Origin: an uncultured Chroococcidiopsis sp.
GTDB taxonomy: Bacteria; Cyanobacteriota; Cyanobacteriia; Cyanobacteriales; Chroococcidiopsidaceae
NCBI GenBank assembly: GCA_964248365.1
Contig: CAXTYC010000053.1
Coordinates: 1-25,720 of the forward strand
Reading direction: 5' to 3'
DNA length: 25,720 nucleotides
Shown here: positions 1,549 to 25,720 of the stretch, in pieces
Layout of the letters: every line of letters starts with the position of its first letter
How positions within the stretch are numbered: the first letter of the stretch is position 1
Notes under the pieces: model-generated
The model's database searches: none
Seen by the model: only the letters and a program-made list of their open reading frames with translations
What the model was told of the DNA's origin: nothing
Position numbers and translations under genes: made by a program

Positions 1549-2583
1549 ATGCAATTTATCGATCAAGCAGAAATTGAAGTTGAAGCTGGAAAAGGTGGCG
1601 ATGGCATTGTTGCCTTTCGGCGAGAAAAGTACGTGCCAGCTGGGGGACCTGCTGGAGGTAATGGGGGTAAGGGTGGATCGATAATTATGGTAGCGGTGGA
1701 AAATCTGCAAACATTGCTAGATTTCAGATATGCCCATCGCTTTAAGGCAGAAGACGGCGATCGCGGTGGACCAAATAACCGCACAGGAGCCGCTGGCAAA
1801 GATCTGGTGATGGAAGTTCCAGCAGGTACTATGGTTTACGATGCCGAAACTGGTGAAGTTCTGGGCGATTTAGTTAACCCAGGACAAACTTTTTGTGTGG
1901 CTTCTGGCGGTAAGGGTGGACTGGGAAACAAACATTTCTTGAGCAATAGCAACCGCGCCCCAGAATATGCTTTACCTGGTTTACCTGGAGAAAAAAGACT
2001 TCTGCGCTTGGAGTTGAAGCTATTGGCGGAAGTGGGCATTATTGGGCTACCTAATGCCGGAAAATCCACCTTGATAGCAGCGCTGTCAGCAGCACGACCG
2101 AAAGTTGCCGACTATCCCTTTACGACCCTAATACCGAATTTGGGTGTAGTACGTAAACCCAACGGAGATGGCACAGTTTTTGCTGACATTCCAGGTTTAA
2201 TAGAAGGCGCTCATACAGGTGCGGGATTAGGTCACGACTTTTTGCGTCATATCGAGCGCACCCGTTTATTATTGCACTTGGTTGACGTTACCTCACCCGA
2301 TCCAATTGCTGACTATCAAACGATTCAACAAGAGTTACAGGCTTATGGAAGAGGACTAGCAGAACGTTCGCAAATTTTAGCACTCAACAAAGTGGATGCC
2401 CTCGATGAGGAAACAGTAAAAGCGATCGCCCAGCAACTAGAACAACTAAGTCACACATCAGTCTTTCAAATTTCCGCTGTCACCCGCAAAGGACTAGATG
2501 AGCTATTGCAGCACATTTGGTCAACCCTAGATCAAATGACTGAAGAAAGGCAAAAAACTGAATTCGTAATTCGTAATTCGTAA
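1549..2583 (+). CDS. obgE: GTPase ObgE/CgtA
   Basis: '[31 protein letters not shown]' Obg fold, G1 'GLPNAGKST', 'DYPFTT', G3 'DIPG', G4 'NKVD'. Confidence 0.98.
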
Positions 2584-2592
2584 TTCGTAATT
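2561..2592. repeat. STRR heptamer array (AATTCGT)n spanning the obgE stop codon
   Basis: aattcgt x4.5; encodes the 'FVIRNS*' tail. Confidence 0.9.
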
Positions 2593-3974
2593 TATCTTTC
2601 TCCCCCAGCTCCCCCAGCTCCCCCAGCAACGCCTGCTTCCCCTGCTCTTTTCAGAGGAGTCGTGGTAATCAAAGGAGTTGCAGCGGATTGACTGAATTGT
2701 TGATAAGCTGCACGAGAGAAAGAGCGAATCAATTCTTTCGCCTGTTCATTGTTATAAGGACGTTTGACCATAGCAACCGCTATGTAGCGCTTACCGCTGG
2801 GCATATCGACTAAACCAACATCCCCCACCATCGAACCGATATCCCCAGTCTTATGAGCAATAGTAGCCCCTTTTCCTAGCCCTTTTGGGAGTAGAGTAGC
2901 TGTGACTGTCTGACGCATGATGTGCAGCAAGCGATCGCGTGACTTGGGTAAAATCAAATCACCCTGCTGTACCGCTGCCATCAATTGTGCTAAATCTCTT
3001 GGACTAGTGGTATTAGTACCTGACAAATCCGGTAACGGATTACGAATTTCTGTTACTGTCAATCCCCAGCTTTGAAAGCGCTGATTCAAAGCCGTTGCAC
3101 CTCCCAAGCGCGAAATCAGCATATTAGTTGCCGTATTGTCGCTGATTGTAATCATTTTGGTTGCCGTAGAGAGTGCTGTAAACTTAGTACCAACAGGTTG
3201 ATACTGCATATCTCCCGAACCACCGCCGATTAACTCTTTTTTCAAAGTTAGCGGTTCATCCAAGTGAATTTTTCCCTCATCTACATCTTGAAAAAAGGCA
3301 ACCAGAATCGGGAATTTAATCATACTGGCAGCAGAAAACGTTAATTCTCCATTTAAGTCTATGTAAGCGCCAGTATCGAGATCAACAAAAAACACCCCAG
3401 GTAGTAGCTTGGTATTTTTACCCGCTAGCTGCTGCACCAAAGTTTTCAAAGGCATAATTTCCTGGCTGAGCTTTAAAGCACCAGCAGTGGCTACTACCAC
3501 ACTTGCTTGTTTTTGTGGCGTTGCTTGCATATTGACAACTTGCACACCTTTGGAGGGGATGCGAATGGTGGGATTCAAAGATGACAAAACTGTGCCTGCG
3601 ATCGCGCTAATTCCCACACCCATAATCAGCAGCCGCAATGCATATAAAATGCAAAAAGACAAGAAATTTTTTTGGTTCTTTGGCAGCCTTCCACCTTGCC
3701 CTTTTACATAGGGGTGGGGTGAGCTAGACGATTTACCATAGTTAGCCACTTCTGATGCGGCTCTAGAGCGCTCGTTGGAATGATTATAAGCTCCTTGTCG
3801 CCGATGGGCATGAGAGTGTTCCTCACTTTGGTACAGATCTTGATCTGATGAGGACATCTTAGCTTGCCCTCGAAACAGTTGTTTTTGGTAGTTTTGTTGC
3901 TCACTGTTTAAGCTTGCTCTACGCTCTGTCTTTGGCTGCTTTCCTGATTGTGGCATTGCTACTTTTTCTGACAC
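2592..3974 (-). CDS. Membrane-anchored serine hydrolase, class A beta-lactamase-like family
   Basis: SxxK ('ASMIK'), SDN ('ISDNTATN') and KTG ('HKTGD') motifs; TM segment near aa 105-130; long disordered N-terminus. Confidence 0.9.
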   Translation of the reverse strand: MSEKVAMPQSGKQPKTERRASLNSEQQNYQKQLFRGQAKMSSSDQDLYQSEEHSHAHRRQGAYNHSNERSRAASEVANYGKSSSSPHPYVKGQGGRLPKNQKNFLSFCILYALRLLIMGVGISAIAGTVLSSLNPTIRIPSKGVQVVNMQATPQKQASVVVATAGALKLSQEIMPLKTLVQQLAGKNTKLLPGVFFVDLDTGAYIDLNGELTFSAASMIKFPILVAFFQDVDEGKIHLDEPLTLKKELIGGGSGDMQYQPVGTKFTALSTATKMITISDNTATNMLISRLGGATALNQRFQSWGLTVTEIRNPLPDLSGTNTTSPRDLAQLMAAVQQGDLILPKSRDRLLHIMRQTVTATLLPKGLGKGATIAHKTGDIGSMVGDVGLVDMPSGKRYIAVAMVKRPYNNEQAKELIRSFSRAAYQQFSQSAATPLITTTPLKRAGEAGVAGGAGGAGGER

Positions 3975-4118
3975 CCTTGACTATAAAGGAGACTGCGCAA
4001 GTCAGTAATCAAAATAACCAAACTACTGCAATTAACTTCAAAAAAAGCAAATAGCATTGGGACACTAGTCTAGCCCAATCGCTAGCCAATGGCGACAAAT
4101 TTAATATTGAAATAACTA

Positions 4119-4242
4119 GGGAAAAGGGTGAAGGGTGAAGGGTAAAGGGTGAAGGGTGAAGGGTAAAGGGGAAAGGGTAAAGGGGAAAGGGTAAAGGGTA
4201 ATTTCCCCCCCTGCTACCCCTGCTACCCCTGCTACCCCTGCT
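4119..4242. repeat. Composite STRR: (AAGGGTG/AAGGGTA)n followed by (CCCCTGCTA)n
   Basis: ~11 purine-rich heptamers, then 9-mers that supply the trmJ stop codon. Confidence 0.9.
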
Positions 4243-5020
4243 CTCTTCTCTCCCCCTCCTTCATACTTCCCTCAACTTTGTGGGAAAGCGCCCATTCTAC
4301 TTGAGTCAAAATTCCCCGCAACATAGCCACTTCGGAATTTTCCAGTTGGGCGCGATTAAATATATGTCGAAATTTTTCCATGCGGCTGGCTGCTGTGTGG
4401 GGATAGAGATAACCAATTTTGAGCAGCAAATCTTCTAGTTGCTGGTAAAATCCTTCTAAAACTCCCAATGAGGCATACTCAACGGCGATCGCCTTGAAGT
4501 CATCGCTTATTTGCCCTTGAGTAGATTTCGCCAGTTCATAACAGCAAATTGCTACGGCAGAGGCTAAATTGAGGGATGGATAGACAGAACTAGACGAAAT
4601 CCTGACAAAGCGTTGAGCATAATTTAATTCTTCATTACTTAAGCCTCGGTATTCGGGACCAAAAATTAGAGCCGTTGCTTGTCCTGGTACAGAAGTTAAC
4701 CAAGGTAGTGCCAGTTGTGGTTCTTCTAACACACTACCAGAGGTACGAAGACGAGCTGTAGTAGCGATCGCTCTGATACACCCATGCAAAGCCGCTGGTA
4801 ACGTCTCGACTATCTGGGCAGATTGTAAAATATCAAACGCATGAACAGCCATTTGTTGAGCTTCTAGCGACAACGGATCGCACTGGGGATTCACAAGCAC
4901 CATGCGCTGTAAACCCATATTTTTCATGATTCGGGCGATCGCACCTACATTCAAAGGACCTTGCGGTTCTACCAACACAATCCTTACCTCAGCTAAGGCA
5001 AGCTCCCACATAAGGAACAT
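4232..5020 (-). CDS. trmJ: SPOUT RNA methyltransferase, TrmJ/LasT family
   Basis: 'IVLVEPQGPLNVGAIARIMKNMG', 'ALIFGPEYRGLSNEEL', 'YPSLNLASAVAICCYE' and 'EVAMLRGI'; start may be 5011. Confidence 0.9.
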   Translation of the reverse strand: MFLMWELALAEVRIVLVEPQGPLNVGAIARIMKNMGLQRMVLVNPQCDPLSLEAQQMAVHAFDILQSAQIVETLPAALHGCIRAIATTARLRTSGSVLEEPQLALPWLTSVPGQATALIFGPEYRGLSNEELNYAQRFVRISSSSVYPSLNLASAVAICCYELAKSTQGQISDDFKAIAVEYASLGVLEGFYQQLEDLLLKIGYLYPHTAASRMEKFRHIFNRAQLENSEVAMLRGILTQVEWALSHKVEGSMKEGERREQG

Positions 5021-5068
5021 AATCGTGCATTACTTAAAATTAGATAAATAATGTATCAAAAAACGAAC

Positions 5069-5227
5069 ATGACACGTACTCGATCCAAATCTGACTTACC
5101 TACAAAAATTTGTCCAGTATGTCAACGTCCTTTTACTTGGCGTAAAAAATGGGAAGATTGCTGGCATGATGTGAAATATTGCTCGGAACGCTGTCGCCGT
5201 CGCCGCTCACAAGGGAGTAGGGAGTAG
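5069..5227 (+). CDS. DUF2256-family small Zn-ribbon protein (52 aa; absent from the ORF track)
   Basis: Manual translation [52 protein letters not shown]; CxxC...RPFTWRKKW...YCSERCR signature. Confidence 0.9.
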
Positions 5228-5372
5228 CGCGAAGACAAGCGCGGAGGTTTCCTCCGATCAGAACGAGGTAAGAGAGGGAGTAGGGGGGACAAGGGGACAA
5301 GGGGAGCCACTTGCGTGCGGGGGTTCCCCCGCAGGGGCAAAGTGGCGTGACAACCCGACAAGAGGACAAGGA
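5212..5372. repeat. Heptamer arrays (AGGGAGT; GACAAGG) carrying two inserted palindromic small dispersed repeats
   Basis: CGGAGGtttCCTCCG hairpin between AGGGAGT units; GCCACTT..TGCGGGGGttCCCCCGCA..AAGTGGC (5305-5348) between GACAAG units. Confidence 0.7.
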
Positions 5373-5485
5373 GGCAATTACCTTTACCCTTTTCCCAAAA
5401 CTGGGTTTCTGGTAACTGGGTTTCTGGTAACTGATTTCCCTTTCCCCTATGGTAATTTTAAGCTTTGGAAAAAATGGAGTAACAA

Positions 5486-6439
5486 GTGCAACCTAAATTA
5501 ATTATTCATGGTGGAGCAGGTAGTTCTTTGCATGGGAAAGGTGGAGTAGAAATCGTCAGGCGATCGCTCTATCAGGTAATCGAGGAAGTATATACGCTTT
5601 TACTAGCTGGCGCAAGTGCAACAGAAGCCACTGTGCGTGGTTGTCAGTTGCTGGAAAACGATCCACTGTTCAACGCCGGAACAGGTTCAGTGTTGCAATC
5701 TGATGGTCAAATTCGCATGAGTGCGGCATTAATGGATGGCTCTACCCAAAAATTCAGTGGCGTGATTAATGTTTCACGGGTACAGCATCCAATTGATTTG
5801 GCTCAAACTTTACAAAGTTCCCCAGACCGAGTTTTATCTGATCATGGCGCAGCCGAACTGTTGCGGGAACTCCAGATTCCTAGTTACGATCCCATGACAG
5901 ATCGCCGCTTGCAGGAGTGGTTGCTAGAGCGGCAAGAAAATTTTGTCAAAAAAATGGCTACCGTAGTTGCAGAAGATGCAGAGGATATACCTTTAGCCAC
6001 TGGAAGCAACGCCGGAAGAGGAACAATTGGCGTTGTAGCGCTCGATAGTCAAGGACAGCTAGCTGCTGGCACTTCAACAGGTGGTAAAGGTTTTGAGCGG
6101 ATTGGGCGCGTGAGTGATTGTGCCATGCCCGCGGGCAATTATGCAACGGACAAAGCAGCTGTCAGTTGTACTGGAATTGGCGAGGACATTATAGATGAGT
6201 GTCTAGCAGCCAAGATTGTAGTACGGGTAACTGATGGGCTGTCGCTTTTGTCAGCGGTAAAGCGCTCGTTTACCGAAGCTTCGCAGCACCAAAGAGATTT
6301 CGGAGCGATCGCCTTGGATGCTACAGGTGCGATCGCTTGGGGCAAAACTAGCGAAGTCCTACTTGCCGCTTTCCATAATGGTGAAAAAATCGGCGATACC
6401 TTAGAAGTTGCGGCGGGTACTCAAGTTGGCTGTATGTGA
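5486..6439 (+). CDS. iaaA: Isoaspartyl peptidase / plant-type L-asparaginase (Ntn hydrolase)
   Basis: 'IIHGGAG', 'LENDPLFNAGTGS', nucleophile motif 'GTIGVVALD', 'STGG...GRVSD' and 'SCTGIGE'. Confidence 0.93.
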   Translation: MQPKLIIHGGAGSSLHGKGGVEIVRRSLYQVIEEVYTLLLAGASATEATVRGCQLLENDPLFNAGTGSVLQSDGQIRMSAALMDGSTQKFSGVINVSRVQHPIDLAQTLQSSPDRVLSDHGAAELLRELQIPSYDPMTDRRLQEWLLERQENFVKKMATVVAEDAEDIPLATGSNAGRGTIGVVALDSQGQLAAGTSTGGKGFERIGRVSDCAMPAGNYATDKAAVSCTGIGEDIIDECLAAKIVVRVTDGLSLLSAVKRSFTEASQHQRDFGAIALDATGAIAWGKTSEVLLAAFHNGEKIGDTLEVAAGTQVGCM

Positions 6440-6519
6440 GTGGCTAGTGGAACCAGTGGCTGGTGGCTAGAAGGAAGCAAAAGGGAGCAAAAGGCAGCTG
6501 AGGGAGAAATAAAAACTCA

Positions 6520-6552
6520 CCCCTTTTCCCTTTTCCCTTTTTCCTTTTCCCT
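6520..6552. repeat. STRR heptamer array (CTTTTCC)n
   Basis: Tandem cttttcc units between the convergent iaaA and glmU genes. Confidence 0.8.
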
Positions 6553-6581
6553 GCCGCCGGCAACACTAGCCACTAGTTCCA

Positions 6582-7943
6582 CTAATCACTAGTCCTACTT
6601 TTCAGTCGCCATCCTGGTTTAACCACCATCCGCGCACGGGCAATTACCAAGCAATCATCTGGTACATCTTCGGTTAAAGTCGATCCAGCTGCTACGGTGA
6701 CATCTTGACCGAGTTTTATGGGCGCTACTAAAACTGTATTTGCACCAGTTTTGCTGCCTTCGCCAATTTGGGTAGGATGTTTTTTCACACCGTCGTAGTT
6801 GGCGGTAATTGTGCCGCAACCGATATTAACGCGATCGCCCACTGTTGCATCACCTAAATAAGACAAGTGAGCTGCTTTTGTCCCATCACCCAACTTGGTT
6901 TTTTTCAACTCGACAAAATTTCCGATCCGGCAGGATCTCCCCACCTCAACCAACCCACGCAAATGAGCATAAGGACCAATCTCAGTCCCTGCATGAACTA
7001 TACTGTTTCTCACCACCGAGTACAAAATAGTAACATTCTCACCAATCTGACTATTTTCAATTAAACTCCCAGGTCCAATGCGACTACCTGATTGAATTAC
7101 TGTATTACCCCGTAGATGGGTTTGCGGCTCAATCACCACGTCTGGATGCAACTGCACCGTGTCATCAATTGTGATGCTAGCTGGGTCAATCATCGTCACT
7201 CCCGCCGCCATCCACTCTGATTTCACCCGCCTTTGCAAGATTTCATAGGTCGTTGCTAGCTGTTCTCGATCATTCACTCCCAGGATTTCCTGCTCATCCT
7301 CAACATCAACTGCCATCGCTGGTTTTAGTAAATTGACCGCATCTGTGAGATAATATTCATGTTGATTGTTATTTGCCTGTAGTTTTGGCAGTACAGCGGC
7401 TAAATCCGACCAACGGAAGCAATAAACACCAGCATTAACGCGACGATTTTGTTTTTGGGCAGCACTACAATCTCGGTCTTCGACAATTTGTTGTACAATA
7501 TTTTGACCGTTACAGAAAACGCGCCCGTAACCTTGGGGATCGGATAGTTGAGCAGTCAGAATAGTAGCAGCGTTTTGATGCTCGGTGTGTGCCTGAATTA
7601 GATGTTTGAGGGTTTGGGTTCTCAACAGAGGTACATCTGAGTTTAACACCAGCAGATCCCCCTGGAAATCCTTTAAGTGAGGCAGCAATTGCCCCAGGGC
7701 ATGACCAGTTCCTAGTTGCTGTGTCTGTTCGACAAACTCCAAATCGGGAACTGACTGCAAGGCTTGTTTTACCATATCAGCCTGATACCCTACAATTACT
7801 AGATACCGCGTTGGCTCAAGTTCCGAGCAACTTTGAAGCACTCGTTCGACTAGCGATCGCCCACCCAATTGGTGTAAAACCTTGGGCAGATCTGATTTCA
7901 TCCGTGTGCCGCGTCCAGCCGCCAGAATTGCTACCGCTACCAT
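6582..7943 (-). CDS. glmU: Bifunctional UDP-GlcNAc pyrophosphorylase / glucosamine-1-phosphate N-acetyltransferase
   Basis: '[19 protein letters not shown]', 'QLGTGHA', 'EYYLTD', 'GNFVELK', 'HLSYLGDA', 'NYDG' and hexapeptide repeats. Confidence 0.98.
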
Positions 7944-15656: not shown

Positions 15657-17126
15657 ATGCTGATGCAAGATAAAAAACAACGCAACTGGAAACCAATTAT
15701 CAAACAATTTGAAGCAGTATTAGGGAAAAATAGCGTAGTACAAAGCCGAGAGGAATTAATTACTTATGAGTGTGATGGCTTAACCAGCTATCGTCAACGT
15801 CCTGGTTTAGTTGTGTTGCCAAGAACCACAGAACAAGTGGCAGAAGTGGTGAAGATATGCGATCGCAACAACATCCCCTTCATTGCGCGTGGTGCTGGTA
15901 CTGGTTTATCTGGCGGCGCACTACCAACAGAAGAGTGTGTATTGATTGTAACCGCCATGATGCGGCAAATCCTTAACATAGATTTGGAAAATCAGCAAGT
16001 TGTCGTACAACCAGGAATAATTAACAACTGGGTAACACAAGCCGTCAGTGGTGCAGGATTCTATTATGCCCCTGATCCTTCCAGCCAAATCATTTGTTCG
16101 ATTGGTGGTAACGTGGCTGAAAACTCCGGCGGGGTACACTGCCTTAAATATGGCGTGACGACAAATCATGTCCTAGGATTAAAACTAGTGCTGCCTGATG
16201 GTTCAATCGTCGATGTAGGCGGAGAAATCCCCGAAATGCCAGGTTATGATCTTACAGGTGTATTTGTTGGTTCCGAAGGTACACTAGGTATCGCTACAGA
16301 AATTACGCTGCGAATTCTCAAAACAGCCGAATCTATCTGCGTTCTCTTAGCAGATTTTACCAGCATTGAAGCCGCTGGGGCGGCAGTTTCTGACATCATC
16401 AGTGCGGGGATTCTTCCTGCTGGGATGGAGATGATGGACAACTTCAGTATCAACGCGGTAGAAGATGTAGTAGCAACAGGTTGTTATCCCAGAGATGCCG
16501 CAGCCATTTTGTTAGTAGAAATAGACGGCTTAGCAATAGAAGTTGCTGAGAATAAACAGCGAATTGCCACCATTTGTAAACAGAATGGAGCCAGGAACAT
16601 TACCACTGCTAATGATCCAGAAACTCGTTTGAAGTTATGGAAAGGGCGTAAAGCAGCATTTGCCGCAGCTGGTAATCTAAGCCCCGATTATTATGTACAA
16701 GATGGAGTAATTCCCCGTACTCAGTTACCCTTTGTGTTACAAGAAATAGAGAATTTAAGCCAGCAATACGGTTATCGCATTGCCAATGTTTTCCATGCTG
16801 GAGATGGTAATTTGCACCCACTGATTCTTTATGATAATTCCGTCCCAGGAGCGCTAGAGCAAGTAGAAGAATTAGGGGGAGAAATTCTCAAACTTTGCGT
16901 AAAAGTAGGTGGTAGTATTTCTGGAGAACATGGTATCGGTGCAGATAAAAAATGTTATATGCCCGATATGTTCAGCCCATCAGATTTAGAAACAATGCAA
17001 TATCTCAGGCAAGCATTTAATCCCAAAGGTTTAGCTAATCCTGGTAAAATATTTCCTACCCCTCGCACTTGTGGCGAAGCAGCAAATGTGCCTCAAAAGC
17101 ACTTTGAGGGAGTCGAGCGTTTCTAA
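15657..17126 (+). CDS. glcD: Glycolate oxidase/dehydrogenase FAD-binding subunit GlcD
   Basis: 'RGAGTGLSGG', 'YAPDPSSQ..CSIGGNVAENSGG.HCLKYG', 'FHAGDGNLHP', 'GEHGIG' and 'NPGK'; GAGGA RBS before the ATG at 15657. Confidence 0.95.
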   Translation: MLMQDKKQRNWKPIIKQFEAVLGKNSVVQSREELITYECDGLTSYRQRPGLVVLPRTTEQVAEVVKICDRNNIPFIARGAGTGLSGGALPTEECVLIVTAMMRQILNIDLENQQVVVQPGIINNWVTQAVSGAGFYYAPDPSSQIICSIGGNVAENSGGVHCLKYGVTTNHVLGLKLVLPDGSIVDVGGEIPEMPGYDLTGVFVGSEGTLGIATEITLRILKTAESICVLLADFTSIEAAGAAVSDIISAGILPAGMEMMDNFSINAVEDVVATGCYPRDAAAILLVEIDGLAIEVAENKQRIATICKQNGARNITTANDPETRLKLWKGRKAAFAAAGNLSPDYYVQDGVIPRTQLPFVLQEIENLSQQYGYRIANVFHAGDGNLHPLILYDNSVPGALEQVEELGGEILKLCVKVGGSISGEHGIGADKKCYMPDMFSPSDLETMQYLRQAFNPKGLANPGKIFPTPRTCGEAANVPQKHFEGVERF

Positions 17127-17148
17127 TTAGACGAGGCTGAGCTATCTA

Positions 17149-17343
17149 CTAGTTCCACAGCTATCGCCCAATACTTCTCGGATAGGAGCCTAACCCTTAG
17201 AGATCCCCCTTAATCCCCCTTTATAAGGGGGATTAAGGGGCTATTTTCAGCAGGGGTTTTTAACCCCTGTTGGGGGGATCGAATCAAAACCTGCGAAGTA
17301 TTGAGCTATCGCCTAGGAACTAGCAATGCTGGCTCTGCCTGCT
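17149..17343. repeat. Degenerate REP-like unit downstream of the RAYT fragment, interrupted by a MITE
   Basis: With the MITE removed the minus strand reads CAGGCAGAGCCA...GTTCCTAGGCgatagCTGTGGAACTAG, resembling the GGCAGAGCC / GTTCC..GGAAC REP type; stem CTAGTTCC/GGAACTAG. Confidence 0.55.
17169..17303. mobile_element. 135-bp MITE (IS4-type, Nezha-like) with a 10-bp target-site duplication
   Basis: TIRs CAATACTTC.../...GAAGTATTG; direct repeat AGCTATCGCC at 17159-17168 and 17304-17313; internal perfect 16-bp hairpin at 17206-17240. Confidence 0.88.
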
Positions 17344-17349
17344 ATCGGC

Positions 17350-17568
17350 TCACAAATCAATCAATACCTGCAATAACCCTAGCTGCTCCATATAATTACG
17401 GTAACTCGAATACTGCCAGTGTGCCGGATCGTCTACATAGCCACTTTTAACTGGATTATTGTGAATATAGTCCAGCTTTTTTCGGAATATTTCCGCATTC
17501 AAAATAGCTTGCGGGTGAAATCTTTCTTGTCAAAGCTGTTATTCTTGGTCTGTTTTGTGTTTGAGTTT
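17350..17568 (-). pseudogene. REP-associated tyrosine transposase (RAYT, HUH/Y1), C-terminal fragment
   Basis: Manual translation KLKHKTDQE*QL*QERFHPQAI...KLDYIHNNPVKSGYVDDPAHWQYSSYRNY...; YIxxNPV and WxYSS motifs, two in-frame stops. Confidence 0.85.
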
Positions 17569-17754: not shown

Positions 17755-18232
17755 GTTCCTGTGAATCTTTTACCTACTTTCAAAATGTGCAACCTACAGT
17801 TACACGACTGAAACAACAAAGTAGAACCAGCTAGATTCAATTGTTAAGGTGCAGCGTTTAACCGTTTAGGTTACTAGGTTTTTTAAGAGGTTGATTACCT
17901 TTTTTCTGTGCCTAATTATACGTTAAGTAGCATGAGAAGTAAAGTCCCTGTTTGCGATTCATACCCCGAAAATTTGGGGGTCTTCTCGCGGTTGAAAGAT
18001 AAAATTTAAGCTGATTAAGATAATAGTTAAATTCGTTTTGTATAAATTGTACTAATTTTCTGTGTCAAAAAGATTCTGTGATTGCTACCTACGAGATTGT
18101 TAGGTACAGCCTTCTACATACGAGATCGACTTGCAACAGGTATTACTCGATATAATTTATCAGCACGATTGGGAAGACTAATATAGTAGAGCGATCGCGC
18201 TCATTGCCCGATTGGTTCTAAAGGATGCTGTA

Positions 18233-20373
18233 ATGTCTCGAAACGAAGCTAATACTAGAAAGGATTTAATTGATCGGGCGTTAGAAACAGCAGGATGGAA
18301 TTTAAAAGAGCCAGACCAAGTGGGGATTGAAATTCCAGTCGATGGGTATGATGCAGAACCTTGGAATGGAGTCACAGACTACTGCCTGTATCAACCTAAC
18401 GGTGAAGTAATTGCCGTTGTAGAGGCAAAGCGACAAAGCCGCGATCCCAGAGTGGCACAGCAGCAGGTGAGGCACTATGTAACTGAAATTGAAAAGCACC
18501 AGAGTTTTCGTCCCTTTGCTTTTATGAGCAATGGAGATCAGACGTTTTTCTGGGACATAGGTAACGAAAATAAGCGTCAAGTAGCTGGTTTTTTCTCCCT
18601 AAGAGACTTGCAGAATTTACTCTACATCCGCCAGAACAAAATTACCCTGCAACAGTTGAGCGTCAATCTGTCCATTGCTGGACGGACATATCAACAGGAA
18701 GCAATAGGGCGAGTTAGCGAACGATTTGACCTGGGACATCGACGGGCGTTGGTAGTCATGGCGACGGGAACGGGAAAGACTCGCACCATAATGGCATTAA
18801 TTGAATTGTTTCTCAGAGCCAACCAAGCGCGAACTGTGCTTTTTTAGCAGATCGGGATGCTCTTGTCAAGCAGGCGCTAGACGAAAATTTTAAGGTTTAT
18901 TTACCCAGCGAACCACGCGATCGCATTCGTACTTACAATATTGATTACAGCAAACGGCTGTATGTAGGGACGCTGCAAACCTTAGTCAAGTGCTGCAAAA
19001 AGTTTACCTGTGGCTTCTTTGACTTGGTGATTTTCGACGAGAGCCATCGCTCAATTTATAATCAGTTGGGCGAGGTAGTAGAATATTTCGATGCGCGGAT
19101 TATCGGACTAACAGCAACGCCAGCTGATTTTATCGAGCGCAATACCTTTCAAGTCTTTCACTGCTTTGATGGCGTTCCCACTTTTGCTTATCCTTACCGC
19201 CAAGCGGTTGAAGAAGGTTATCTGGTAGATTACAGCCTTTATCAAGCACGGACTCGCTTTCAACGGAGGGAATTCGGGGCGCAAACCTATCGGAAGAAGA
19301 CCGCAATACGTTGATCGAGCAAGGACTTGACCCCGACGAGATTGACTATGAAGGGACACAGTTAGAGCGCACGGTTAGCAATAAGGATACCCTGCGGCAA
19401 CAGTGGGCAGAAATTATGGAAGTTTGCCTCAAGGACGAATCGGGGCAGTATCCAGGTAAGACAATTGTATTTGCAGTCAGTCAAAATCAGGCACTGCGTC
19501 TAGCAAAGGTGTTTGAGGAAATGTATCCCCAGTATCTTGACATGGTGCAGGTGATTACGTCTGAAATGGAACGCACTAACGATCTGATCGATCGCTTCAA
19601 AAAAGAGAATATGCCCCGCATAGGGATCGATTGCAGTGGATGTTAGCCATTTGCCAGACTTTGTTTATCAAGACTCCCAGTGTCAAGACTCGATAAATCT
19701 TTGCCTTTCAGCTAGATTAGGCACGGCTACGCCAGAGGAATTAAATCGAGCGATCGCTAACTTAGCAAGTCAAATGAAGAATCGACGGGAACGCCCCAGT
19801 TCTTTTATTGAAATTGACTTGATGGATCGAATTGCCTCATGTGGTTACATCACTTTAGGGCAAGGGGGAGAGCGGATTTATGTGGAAGAATACCGTCAAC
19901 GGGTTGAGAGTAAAGTGTTAGAAATTGTGGAGACTCATCCTACTGTTACGGCAATTCGTAACGGGGAAGTCCCTACAGACGTGCAACTGGCGGCGTTAGA
20001 GCGTACCCTACGGCAGGAGTTGGGTGGGGGAAACGTGCAGTTATCAGAGTCAAATATTCGTAAGGCGTTTAATCTTAAGGTGAATAGTTTGCTGTCGTTT
20101 GTGCGGGAGTTGTTGGAGATTGAGGCCCTGCCGGATTATCAGGAGGTGGTGAAGCGAAATTTTGAGGAGTATATTGCCCAGCATCCATTCAACGCTAATC
20201 AGATTCGGTTTTTACGAGCTGTACAAAATGTGTTTTTACAGAAGCGGCGGTTAGAGGTAGCGGATTTGTATGAAGAACCCTTAGATCGGTTTGGGGAGGA
20301 TGCTGTAGAGCGGTGGTTTAGTGAGAAAGAGGTGGATGAGTTGATTGAATTTACAAAGCAGTTGGCAGCTTAG
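18233..20373 (+). pseudogene. hsdR: Type I restriction enzyme R subunit (EcoAI/EcoEI-like), fragmented
   Basis: 'NEANTRKDLID', nuclease 'VVEAKR', Walker A 'MATGTGKT', 'DESHRS', 'GLTATP', 'GKTIVFA' and an EcoEI-type C-terminus. Frameshifts at ~18843 and ~19269; internal deletion near 19625. Confidence 0.9.
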
Positions 20374-22354: not shown

Positions 22355-22503
22355 AAAAGATTGGTGGTTATTATTGACAGCAAAAGCCCAGAATAAATCT
22401 AATAAAAAGCACATTGCAAGACAAACTTTCGCCGAACTTATCTCTCGTTAAACGATCTGTATTTTGAGTATTTAAACAATACGTGCCTGTTGACTGGTAA
22501 TGC

Positions 22504-23381
22504 TTACTGACCCTGAACTGCTTTTTCGGCTGCGGCTACGGCTTTGTCAAACCCATCAGCATCTTGAAATAATGGGGCTAGCAGACCATGACTCCAGTAT
22601 TTTTTAGGGATATTCTTTACCGGATCATCTAAAGACAGTTGTTGAAGAGAATACTTTAGGGCTTCTTTTAGATCGTAATAAGGAATATCACCTACAGGCT
22701 GGTCAAGAAGCCCCTGAGCTTTGGCTTGATCATAGGTCATCTCTTGAGCATACTTTTTACCAGGTACTTTAACTAGATAAGGGTGTTTATAAAAACTTAG
22801 TACCTTCCACATATCTTCTGTCAGGGTAATACCAGGTAGCCCCTTACTGCTCGGTTTACCTGTCCATGTGGGGGGTAAACTAGCTGATCTATTATACTAA
22901 TGAACTCTACCCAGATGCGATACAGCCCTAGTGCTGTTTCAATGTGTCGCTGGGTTTGAGTACGATACTCTAGAGACTCTTGATAAGACCTAGCCTTACC
23001 CCATGCATGGCTGTGGATGTCCTCAAGTTTGTCAGCAGTGAATGAGGCTAGTAAGGATACAGCGCGATCTCGCTTGGCTTTAGCTATCCGGTCAGACTCT
23101 GCTACCATCTGCCATATTAGAGCTACACCAGGAGACTTCACTATAGTGACGGGTCTATTAGAGCCTTCTACGTGGACATCTTCACATAGAAAAGCTTTGC
23201 AGGCTAAGGCTTTAGGGTCATTTTTGTTGAGTAAACTTCCGATAGACTTAGAGGACATACCTACAGTCTCACCCACCGCAGTTAGGCTCATACCCTGATC
23301 ACCGTCTTCTAGCAGAAAGCTATCACCTGGGATATCATCAGTTAGTTGAATACTCTTCCGAGGTGCAATATACTTACTCAT
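22504..23381 (-). pseudogene. Phage-like (antirepressor/P63C-like?) protein split by a frameshift in a C6 run
   Basis: The frames of the 186-aa and 102-aa ORFs overlap at the G6 run 22870-22875 ('LVYP' to 'PTWTGKPSSKGLPGITLTEDMWKV'); family assignment is by resemblance only. Confidence 0.5.
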
Positions 23382-23397
23382 TTCAGCTTATGTCCTT

Positions 23398-23415
23398 TGA
23401 TACCATGTGGTATCA
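23398..23415. promoter_or_regulatory. Perfect 18-bp palindrome TGATACCA-TG-TGGTATCA; candidate operator
   Basis: 8-bp inverted repeat ending 17 bp upstream of the ATG at 23381. Confidence 0.55.
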
Positions 23416-23467
23416 TTAAATATATGTGTGTGTGGGTAAAACTCAAGTGGTGTAACCCTAATAGGTG

Positions 23468-23747
23468 CTGAACACCCGCAGGAGCTAAGCAACAGCATGA
23501 AAGTTAAGCACTTGATCCTATGTTTCAAGTACCTAGCTACAGAAAAGCTGTTATATCATTTGCAAAGCTTACGATGCCTATGTTGGCTGACTACGAGCCC
23601 AGCCTAAAATAAGGCTAGACGTTGCATCACTCAGTTATAAGGCTGTTCATTACCTCTTGACCCTATTTCCTGGCTTACTCATGCCTACTTTGCGGGTTTC
23701 TTCTGGTATTCCCCGAACAGTCCCTACATCTGAGTGATGTTATTCAG
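23468..23747 (-). ncRNA. Candidate ~280-nt multi-domain structured RNA, family unknown
   Basis: Closing stem CUGAAUA/UGUUCAG encloses three stems; many G-U pairs are possible only on the minus strand; no ORF of 60 aa or more in the track. Confidence 0.6.
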
Positions 23748-23823
23748 TTATGCCTTGGTTACAGTAGGACTGACATCAGTGCGATCGCGGAATACCCCAA
23801 GAAGTTATAGTGATCGCATTCAT

Positions 23824-23846
23824 GAGGGGCTAATAGATAACCCCTC
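23824..23846 (-). terminator. Stem-loop after the 94-aa ORF (terminator or stabiliser; no U-tract)
   Basis: GAGGGGUUA-UCUAU-UAGCCCCUC, a 9-bp stem 10 nt after the stop. Confidence 0.45.
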
Positions 23847-23856
23847 AAACCTCCCT

Positions 23857-24141
23857 CTAATGCGATCGGTTCCTTAGTAACTCTTGCAATAACCGTTCAA
23901 TACCGATCACAGCATCGTCAAGCCTGTCTAGCCGTGCTTCATTGCTATTTATCCGTGCTTCAGTCCTAATGTTAAACTCAACAATAGTTTGCACTAGTGC
24001 ATCTACAGAGGCTCTAGTACTGGCAATATCCGCTCTATTGGCTGCTACATCATTACTGATAGCCTCAATAGCCCTAGCGTTAGACTCTACTATTGCCGCA
24101 AGTCGGTCTAGTCGCTCATCATTCCAACGTTCAGTAGACAT
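23857..24141 (-). CDS. Small coiled-coil hypothetical protein
   Basis: AAGGAG RBS; heptad pattern 'ERLDRLAAIVESNARAIEA', common in cyanobacterial accessory DNA. Confidence 0.8.
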   Translation of the reverse strand: MSTERWNDERLDRLAAIVESNARAIEAISNDVAANRADIASTRASVDALVQTIVEFNIRTEARINSNEARLDRLDDAVIGIERLLQELLRNRSH

Positions 24142-24197
24142 TTTTACTCCTTAAATATCATGCATTTCTACTATGGGATGTAGTATGCTAGGTGTTG

Positions 24198-24377
24198 CTA
24201 CATTGCCATTGAAGTAAGTTGTAGCCAGTGCTTTAGGTTCAGTACCTTTTGATGCAGATGTGGGATATTACTAGTGTATTCGGGTCGTAGTGTTGTCTCG
24301 AATAAGATCAACTCTTTCTCTATCCGTGCTAAGTCCTGATGAATGCCTTGTACCGTCTTGTTGCGATCGCGCTTGGT
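24198..24377 (-). pseudogene. 59-codon ORF remnant with its 5' end at the IS boundary
   Basis: Open frame TKRDRNKTVQGIHQDLARIEKEL...SMAM* with no start codon, beginning at the putative IS end. Confidence 0.4.
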
Positions 24378-24379
24378 CA

Positions 24380-25720
24380 GGGCTGAAAGTGCGTCAACTA
24401 AGTGCTATCTGTAAATTTTCCATTGATTAGGTAGCCTGGGCAGGAAACCAAAGTTGCTGCCACTGCCCGTTAAGTTCAACTACGCGCAGCAGACTCAAGG
24501 CTCTACTACCCAAGGGTCTCCAACTCATGGCTTTCTTCTTCTGACGGCGTCCAACTGTTAAATCTACCCCCTTCTCCATCCGCCCACTGCCAATGGTTTT
24601 ACCAAGGCGGCGACGCCGATTGTAATTAATGATTTCTGAGTGATGCTTTTCAAGATAGCCAATTAATTCTGACCACTTCTGTTGATTTCTAACTGTCACC
24701 TGAGTTCTTAAGTAGTCCAGAGCATTATCAACTAACCCCAGCCAGAGTTGCGGAATTAAAAACTTCAGATGGGTAGTTTTTTCTGATTTGTTGACAGCAA
24801 TCATCGACATGAGTTGTCGGAGCTTTCTACAGAGGTGATACCAATCTAAAATCACAGTGACTGCCACCCCAAAGATGGCAAGCAGCCTGTTACGAATGAC
24901 TCTAGCTCCATCAGTAATGGCTACTATGTTTAAGGGGCGATTTTCGTTACTATACTCTTGAATAACTTTAGCTTGCACCACGGTAGCTAAAGAAAGTAAG
25001 TCTTTACCTTCTGCATTCGTGGGGGCAGTGATGTATTCAAATCCTCCAGTTGATTTTTGCAGCATGACAACATCTGTCATCACGACTGGAGTTTTTGCCT
25101 CAAGAGTGCTCTGGTCCTTCTTCTCCTTATTGGGCTTGGCTTTGGACTGCCGCTCAGCTTTTTGGCTTTTGACTTGTATGCCATCATCAAACAACAAAAT
25201 TTCCTTTTCTTCTACATCGTAAATGTCTACTTTGGAGTTTACTCTTAGCAACTCTAAAGTGGGTCGTGCCACAATCTTTGCTACTTCCTTTTGGATATCT
25301 TGGCTGATTACCAGGGCTTTATCACTAACAATCTGCCAAATCTTCTGGTCGCTCAATAAGTACCCACCAGTTATTCTTTCCACTAGCTTTTCAACTTCTT
25401 TATAGCTGAGCCGATTGCTATAGTAAGCACACAATTCCTGTAATCTAGGACTAATATATCCCTCTGTTAGTTGCTGACTCAGCTCGAAGTAGCTTTTCCC
25501 TTGACCTTGCACTTGATATTTCTGCAACTGAAACTGAAACTTCCCGTGCATAGTTTTAATGTAGACAGGAGTAGTGCCATTACAGCTCAGTTCACTGTTT
25601 TTTTACCTGTTGGGTGAACTGGTCTTGCGCCTGAGTCAATAAATCAGCTTCAATGCTTTACGTCTATGCTTTTTGATGGAGAGGAGATTGGCTTTTGAGT
25701 CACTAACCACTCGCCAATAC
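24380..25720 (-). mobile_element. ISKra4/ISLre2-like (Mutator-type DDE) insertion sequence, running off the window
   Basis: Transposase ORF; putative terminal sequence GGGCTGAAAGTGCGTC 47 bp beyond the stop; the other end is not visible. Confidence 0.7.
24427..25551 (-). CDS. ISKra4/ISLre2-like transposase, catalytic portion
   Basis: 'LLFDDGI', 'ITDGA', 'LDWYH' (DxxH) and 'IGSGRMEK..RRQKKKAMSW'; the frame stays open upstream to the A7 run at 25598-25604. Confidence 0.85.
   Translation of the reverse strand: MHGKFQFQLQKYQVQGQGKSYFELSQQLTEGYISPRLQELCAYYSNRLSYKEVEKLVERITGGYLLSDQKIWQIVSDKALVISQDIQKEVAKIVARPTLELLRVNSKVDIYDVEEKEILLFDDGIQVKSQKAERQSKAKPNKEKKDQSTLEAKTPVVMTDVVMLQKSTGGFEYITAPTNAEGKDLLSLATVVQAKVIQEYSNENRPLNIVAITDGARVIRNRLLAIFGVAVTVILDWYHLCRKLRQLMSMIAVNKSEKTTHLKFLIPQLWLGLVDNALDYLRTQVTVRNQQKWSELIGYLEKHHSEIINYNRRRRLGKTIGSGRMEKGVDLTVGRRQKKKAMSWRPLGSRALSLLRVVELNGQWQQLWFPAQAT

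Follow-up and report, generated by a model that had tools for sequence, protein, structure and literature searches.

The DNA considered here, referred to as the window, is a stretch of 25,720 nucleotides from an uncultured Chroococcidiopsis sp. and is the whole of contig C53 of this cyanobacterial genome. Along the minus strand, on which the features of this locus lie, the order is an ISKra4-like transposase (a match below the curated cut-off), a 94-aa ORF (23857-24141), a small hairpin without a U tract (23824-23846), a structured RNA element of ~280 nt (23468-23747), a gene that is divided between two ORFs (186 and 102 aa; 22504-23381) and an IS1 fragment. The 94-aa ORF is an optional cassette, absent from some metagenome variants and not found by alignment (A2) in G002, a second genome of the same genus; contigs of metagenome runs X1 and X2 join across 23828-24197 and so bypass it. 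Between the RNA and the split gene lies an 8-bp inverted repeat (23398-23415) that is largely kept in G002 and could be an operator or an mRNA hairpin. The region 22400-24400 is rich in TAG/CTA triplets, as is the corresponding island of G002.

The split gene has a predicted N-terminal domain of the Bro-N/KilA-N/P63 kind and a one-base frameshift near 22898. As its relatives are continuous (292 aa; 444-446 aa) and contigs of three runs carry one extra base at 22898, the window copy is either frameshifted or misassembled. Its counterpart in G002 is 81% identical at the DNA level. The protein has no match in Pfam, PHROGs, NCBIfam or PADLOC, and only eight representatives are found at E<=0.001. 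The Atlas places it nearest to clusters carrying BstA_C (0.97-0.98); for residues 165-292 its leads stay under 0.9 and none of the listed rows carries BstA_C, a model that the local Pfam may lack. With a structure model of pLDDT 72 as query, the PDB yields nothing at E<=0.001, and Foldseek matches among viral proteins are weak, at TM about 0.25-0.3 (Bro, E 5.8e-4; p63, E 1.2e-3; antirepressor, E 2.5e-3). From these matches to modelled folds we infer a probable Bro-N/KilA-N-like protein. Distant relatives occur in three other cyanobacterial genomes (loci L003, L004, L005 and L007), beside short ORFs that by eye resemble ribbon-helix-helix proteins; none of these loci matches the model of the RNA's cap described below. 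Two contigs of run X8 diverge from the gene at 22745-22747, and their loose ends are inverted relative to each other, which suggests an insertion sequence in that variant.

The RNA recurs in a diverged form of about 250 nt in a prophage of G002, where it lies between NikA-like and CopG-like genes, 290 nt upstream of the Bro-N-like gene. The surrounding island contains a tail/peptidase-M23 protein, several ribbon-helix-helix genes and, in an ORF other than the Bro-N-like gene, a weak BstA-family match; the second BstA-family-like ORF of the island is at L143:11097-11747 (phrog_6287, E 3.4e-6). Homologs of three of the island proteins (44-67% identity) are found on contig C51 of the window's own genome beside an integrase and a helicase fragment, and C51 and C53 may derive from a single decayed prophage. 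The C51 remnant (2374-6690, L257) comprises the integrase, the helicase fragment, which is of an origin-binding family, a Cro/C1 HTH gene, a DUF4258 gene and the homologs of the G002 island. Wherever a source covers both, the RNA and the Bro-N-like gene face the same way, and in X1, X2 and X8, runs chosen by similarity to the window, the RNA is linked to the gene start within single contigs. An earlier note on this DNA, made from the sequence alone, had placed the RNA upstream of a phage-like gene. This is true in both genomes, but the gene directly downstream differs between them, being Bro-N-like in the window and CopG-type in G002, and the element is thus not always an immediate leader of the former.

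The minimum free energy of the minus-strand fold is -98.4 kcal/mol (z -5.0), a value equalled by 0 of 200 shuffles. The plus strand reaches z -3.0, with 1 of 200 shuffles as good. In a scan with 10 shuffles per tile, the tile over the element ranks third among the 182 of the window. Searched with covariance models, the window holds no Rfam 15 match at the gathering threshold, a local search gives none at E<=5, and the best score of the G002 copy is 23 bits against a threshold of 70, on the opposite strand. ARAGORN finds no tRNA or tmRNA in the window, and no small ORF common to the two RNAs was found. No paper describing the RNA was found by a search of literature listings; six short motifs are absent from three of the six supplementary files of PMC10690425, a catalogue whose remainder may still hold it. 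The element is therefore new as far as Rfam and this literature search show, and the proposal of a novel structured RNA borne by a mobile element holds up, given the prophage setting in two genomes, the covariation described below and the lack of an Rfam match.

The family is narrow: among the genomes searched it is confined to the window's own and G002, with ~90%-identical copies in metagenome contigs. No second copy was found in its own genome. A blastn search with the RNA gave 0 of 100 relatives and missed G002; the G002 copy, with its compensating changes, was found through the downstream gene, as the sole strong match among 400 genomes of the order. A model of the cap (R1) gives one strong match, G002, in 60 relatives. 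A model of domain III (R2) gives none in 150 genomes of the order, a draw that did not include G002, and among five genomes of the genus it is strong in G002 only. Pattern searches of 400 genomes of the phylum, protein-seeded scans of sequence collections and BLAST against phage and plasmid collections gave no match, and further scans of collections returned either no loci or five without a model match, those of the metagenome and genome collections having been run with motifs earlier than the best one. Several candidates were rejected on inspection. Eight weak R1 matches (E 0.03-0.9) lack the motif, a weak R2 match in genome G005 is antisense within an ORF, and a pattern search allowing three mismatches in 300 genomes of the order gave two matches, one antisense in glyA and one without the motif. 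Likewise, 110 collection loci from the first pattern are chance (best nhmmer E 1.1), and 82 viral loci reach at best 25 bits with their pairs broken. The listed runs carry labels of air, urban, indoor, dust, aerosol or surface in 19 of 23 cases, contigs from six of them having been compared; no habitat is claimed.

Ten helices were aligned between the window and G002, the only two full sequences, with registers set by hand. On this alignment, 36 of 55 pairs are unchanged, 6 are changed on one side, 11 are changed on both sides and 2 are broken; five of the 11 double changes fall in one helix (P2b) and two in the closing stem P1, where the register is alignment-dependent. Identity over the core (0.73-0.75) does not exceed that at third codon positions of the gene (0.73), which counts against the leader reading given below, but it is above the 0.53 of the flank and the 0.50 of shuffled sequence. 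Some observations would fit a stretch between genes that is rich in palindromes and folds by chance, without selected structure: the G002 copy reaches only z -2.2, outer pairs of domain I are broken in X1, and another tile of the window folds better than the element (17081-17360, z -6.8). That tile, however, is two simple perfect hairpins, and the excess of double changes over broken pairs, together with the controls on the pseudoknot given below, makes chance folding very unlikely. The structure is very probably real and selected. The strongly folding stretch elsewhere in the window (17126-17400) follows an FAD-oxidase gene, and blastn finds no other copy of its two adjacent hairpins in the genome.

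Much of the secondary structure drawn in the earlier note is indeed present. P1 pairs 23741-23747 with 23474-23468, with a core of five pairs; two of its six aligned pairs are changed on both sides in G002, and X3 loses the outer two pairs on the 3' side, a point against the structure. The domain I rod (23625-23739) has 23 pairs, with 2 G-U, one A.A mismatch and one bulged A. Its inner helix (23720-15/23648-43) covaries, including two adjacent double changes in X1 (23717:23646 and 23716:23647), and its outer and middle parts are variable. Domain II (23597-23620) is a hairpin of nine pairs, two of them U-G, and all eight pairs aligned with G002 are kept, with one double and two one-sided changes. 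The purine-rich region of 66 nt that the rod caps in the earlier note is no open loop. This region (23649-23714) holds three invariant helices, UACC/GGUA, ACCC/GGGU and GGC/GCC, separated by purine-rich internal loops, as well as one strand of a pseudoknot. All 11 pairs of these helices are identical in G002, and 12 distinct variant events in X1, X3 and X6 leave the 22 paired positions of the cap untouched. The chance of this is ~0.01, with the proviso that independence of the events is incomplete and that the depth of the X3 contigs is near 3.

Domain III fared less well. The inner ACUUGA/UCAAGU pairing and the complementary words are present, but the fold drawn from them reaches -85.0 as against -98.4 kcal/mol and is absent from G002. 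The core that is shared (23492-23551) consists of three stacked helices, CAGC/GCUG, AG/CU and RYACUUGA/UCAAGUGY, of which 15 of 16 pairs are kept in G002. In both genomes, the word UCAAG occurs in the 3' loop of the cap as well as in the stem of domain III (G002: L119:975-1232), so that ACUUGA could also pair with the cap loop, a candidate alternative fold. A four-way junction with linkers of 0-4 nt can be formed in the window copy only and is not seen in G002. Folded by itself, the G002 copy takes up the nested arrangement of the window copy, at z only -2.2. Domain III as first drawn, the outer half of domain I and the -10-like box are not conserved. TACTGT is found at 23766-61 but reads TACAGC in G002, and a promoter scan lists no site at that position.

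The conserved hallmark of the element is a pseudoknot, rather than a four-way junction, that joins the apical internal loop of the domain I cap (23686-23693) to the linker before domain III (23562-23569). With the three helices of the cap, it is among the parts that are kept best, none of which had been drawn in the earlier note. It was spotted by scanning the G002 copy for complements between unpaired segments. The pairing is 8/8 in G002 and 7/8 in the window even though 5 of 8 partner letters differ. Two pairs show double changes and two show one-sided changes, and the eighth appears as A.A in the window, as U-A in X1 and as A-U in G002. Five random changes would keep 8/8 pairs with a probability of 3.6e-4, and none of 120 other registers of the partner exceeds 5/8 in either genome. 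The two duplexes contribute -8.3 and -6.3 kcal/mol. Both strands are unpaired in the G002 minimum free energy fold, and freeing them costs nothing there, as compared with 3.8 kcal/mol in the window. The 8-bp pairing may form within one molecule or between copies.

Variation among metagenome contigs adds to this picture. Contigs from six runs were compared, with 19 of 20 X1 substitutions listed and 40 of 395 differences shown. Of the 19, nine are unpaired, four form the two adjacent compensatory pairs of domain I, three open the middle of the rod, two break its outer end and one is ambiguous beside an insertion. Some changes count against the structure: a loose end of X1 alters 23506 and so disrupts a pair of the minimum free energy fold as well as of the domain III of the earlier note, and in X6, 90 unlike letters replace 23539-23639, including the region of the pseudoknot partner. 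Positions 23725-23761 are shared by further contigs in X1, X2, X3 and X11, each continuing into an alternative version of the helix of domain I, so that more variants of the RNA exist in these runs.

The element is assigned to the minus strand because all six one-sided pair changes are exchanges with G-U pairs. Selection on a minus-strand transcript had been proposed from the wobble pairs. The folding asymmetry between strands is not repeated in G002 (z -2.2 on the RNA strand vs -2.8 on the other). The one-strand bias of these exchanges also counts against a role as DNA, whether as a single-stranded or replication-linked element (an origin, primer or packaging signal, like the ARRPOF and GEBRO motifs) or as a self-immunity site such as aba. 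Such a role would fit the ribbon-helix-helix genes that flank the G002 copy and the origin-binding-family helicase fragment in the related remnant, and plasmid motifs of 223-349 nt may act as single-stranded DNA, according to the part of the source available (PMC5737381). Yet this fragment lies on another contig, and under DNA parameters the strands differ by <3 kcal/mol with the favoured strand flipping between window and G002. As consulted in part, PMC8585504 describes aba as a DNA of 63 bp that overlaps a start codon. A DNA element is, on balance, improbable.

How the element would act is a less certain matter. Our tentative preference is for an RNA leader at the head of a prophage operon, which would switch the translation of downstream phage DNA-binding regulators. 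It would be transcribed with the operon, as inferred from the lack of a U-tract terminator after the element: no hairpin followed by a U tract is found there in the window, nor in the 35 nt before CopG in G002. The invariant cap, the pseudoknot and domain III would form a compact sensor of a protein, a metabolite or a second copy of the RNA, with a phage or host protein as the first guess for the signal. The 3' end would then alternate between two states: with P1 closed, the start region would be free, and with the 3' end paired to the initiation region of the next gene, translation would be off. In this way, the switch would gate CopG-type and Bro-N/KilA-N-like regulators of the choice between lysis and lysogeny.

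Pairings compatible with such a switch are computed in both genomes, with modest significance. With flanks included, P1 has a probability of <=0.04 in both window and G002, which suggests that it is metastable in its natural setting. A candidate anti-Shine-Dalgarno segment (23480-23490) is predicted to pair with the ribosome-binding region of the downstream gene (23386-23396), with a probability of 0.53 that rises to 0.85 if the pseudoknot strands are held out, a shift that is no clean on/off change with the pseudoknot in the computed ensemble. In G002, the 3' end of the RNA, including the P1 strand, pairs 7/7 just before the first CopG start. Of 2763 genome start regions, 5.8% in the case of the window and 2.5% in that of G002 pair equally well with these segments, which were chosen after looking and are not homologous between the two genomes. 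Less favourably, the share is 21% for the second CopG start of G002 and 25% for its Bro-N-like start, and with the whole RNA as partner it is 31%. Among the differences shown for X1 and X8, a deletion at 23484 and a change at 23392 keep the start-region pairing by inspection. The downstream gene may also have its own promoter in the window, since the inverted repeat and a weak promoter-like site precede it. The RNA library X8 has a contig over 23300-23787 and none over 23812-24450, a region that DNA runs cover; this coverage comes from one study whose library may contain DNA, and it is not counted toward transcription or a start site.

The leader reading is slightly ahead of a trans-acting phage RNA, which follows close behind and has perhaps one chance in three in our judgement. 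Such an RNA would be cut from, or end within, the operon transcript and be closed by P1. It could bind a protein, for instance the Bro-N-like neighbour as a decoy or antitoxin, or self-associate via the 8-bp pairing as a small relative in kind of GOLLD and ROOL. In favour of it, P1 brings the two ends of the RNA together in both genomes and shows two double changes; against it, P1 is out-competed by flanking pairings in both. The variable identity of the next gene speaks for action in trans, as does the placement of the protein nearest to BstA_C clusters in the Atlas. Most leaders are smaller and simpler than this element, which was counted on the same side. The portion of PMC12286853 consulted adds that a covarying 'tertiary' pair of ROOL proved intermolecular. 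On the other side stand the absent terminator, the promoter that is not conserved and the lack of an antisense target conserved in the flanks.

Among known systems, the mode of action proposed for a leader would be most like those of IsrK and c4, without their defining features. Both control prophage antirepressor-type genes at the translation step, according to the sections consulted (PMC12197685, PMC4825925). IsrK of Gifsy-1 is a structured RNA of about 217 nt heading a transcript with a small ORF and the regulator gene anrP, and its alternative structures set translation, as the same excerpts describe (PMC4825925, PMC12197685). The order in G002 is similar, namely RNA, small ORF and larger regulator-like gene, and alternative folds of the IsrK type hiding the next start are predicted for the window and for G002; they rank within the top 2.5-6% of start regions and are not homologous. 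However, IsrK has a terminator and a short isoform, which activates in trans, while the present element lacks a terminator and an Rfam match. IsrK also comes from another host phylum, and a pseudoknot is not mentioned in the text of those sources consulted, whereas the element is pseudoknotted. The c4 RNA of phages P1/P7 likewise blocks the ribosome-binding region of an antirepressor-type gene, as excerpted from PMC12197685. It is 77 nt long and acts in trans via loop sequences, whereas the element is over three times longer and has its candidate pairing in the 3' linker, where sequence is not conserved; no loop complement of the c4 type to flanks common to both genomes was found.

Other comparisons concern form more than mechanism. 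GOLLD and ROOL are prophage-borne multi-stem RNAs of unknown function, and ROOL has pseudoknots, as given in the parts consulted of PMC12286853 and PMC5737381. By the same partial accounts they span 659 to over 800 nt and are often near tRNAs, in contrast to an element of 250-280 nt with no tRNA and no Rfam match. BstA is a prophage protein whose N-terminus is KilA-N-like and whose gene is preceded by a non-coding element, in the section of PMC8585504 seen, and the Atlas neighbours of the present protein carry BstA_C. From the same section, aba has terminal direct repeats and lies over the start codon, whereas 87 nt separate the end of the present element from the start, and no such repeats were seen in it by inspection. 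ARRPOF and GEBRO are possibly pseudoknotted. They share the size class and the mobile-element context of this RNA but belong to Fusobacterium and Streptococcus plasmids near origins, as far as the excerpt of PMC5737381 goes, and the element has neither an Rfam nor a plasmid match.

Catalytic RNA cores typically have invariant purine-rich internal loops and a long-range pseudoknot. Because the element has both, a new ribozyme or an intron-derived remnant that processes the operon transcript deserves mention. No Rfam ribozyme or intron matches even at E up to 5-10, however, and the element interrupts no ORF. By inspection against the intron consensus, the helix order departs from that of group I and a domain-V-like hairpin was not seen. 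Catalysis thus seems a distant prospect. Short words in the element also seem to us to resemble the cobalamin riboswitch, a candidate that was set aside with no Rfam match and with downstream genes for predicted DNA-binding proteins that are not B12-related. The non-coding RNA of a retron or DRT system was set aside as well, as no reverse transcriptase gene is found among 25 ORFs of the window, 16 of the G002 island and 8 of C51, both loci being near contig ends.

New riboswitches and ribozymes tend to turn up among rare complex RNA folds. Here, a pseudoknotted fold supported by covariation stands without an Rfam family, in a prophage lineage that is unmatched in the phage, plasmid and viral-contig collections searched. 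If the switch is real, it adds RNA-level control of prophage regulators in cyanobacteria. More ambitiously, and with little weight placed on it, the element could represent a new riboswitch-like class of phage RNA, in which the invariant cap and the pseudoknot respond to a metabolite or stress signal of the host, or pair between copies, setting lysis or lysogeny without a protein sensor in a temperate phage of desiccation-tolerant cyanobacteria. A length of 250-280 nt, two natural versions and a defined pseudoknot make the element directly testable by probing and compensatory mutants.

Two further features were seen in passing. At 18212-20373, the window contains a gene for an EcoAI-type type I restriction subunit R in four ORFs, and at about 30000-32800 of contig C47 of the same genome, at the contig end, the translations contain a repeated unit that looks like a CRISPR array.
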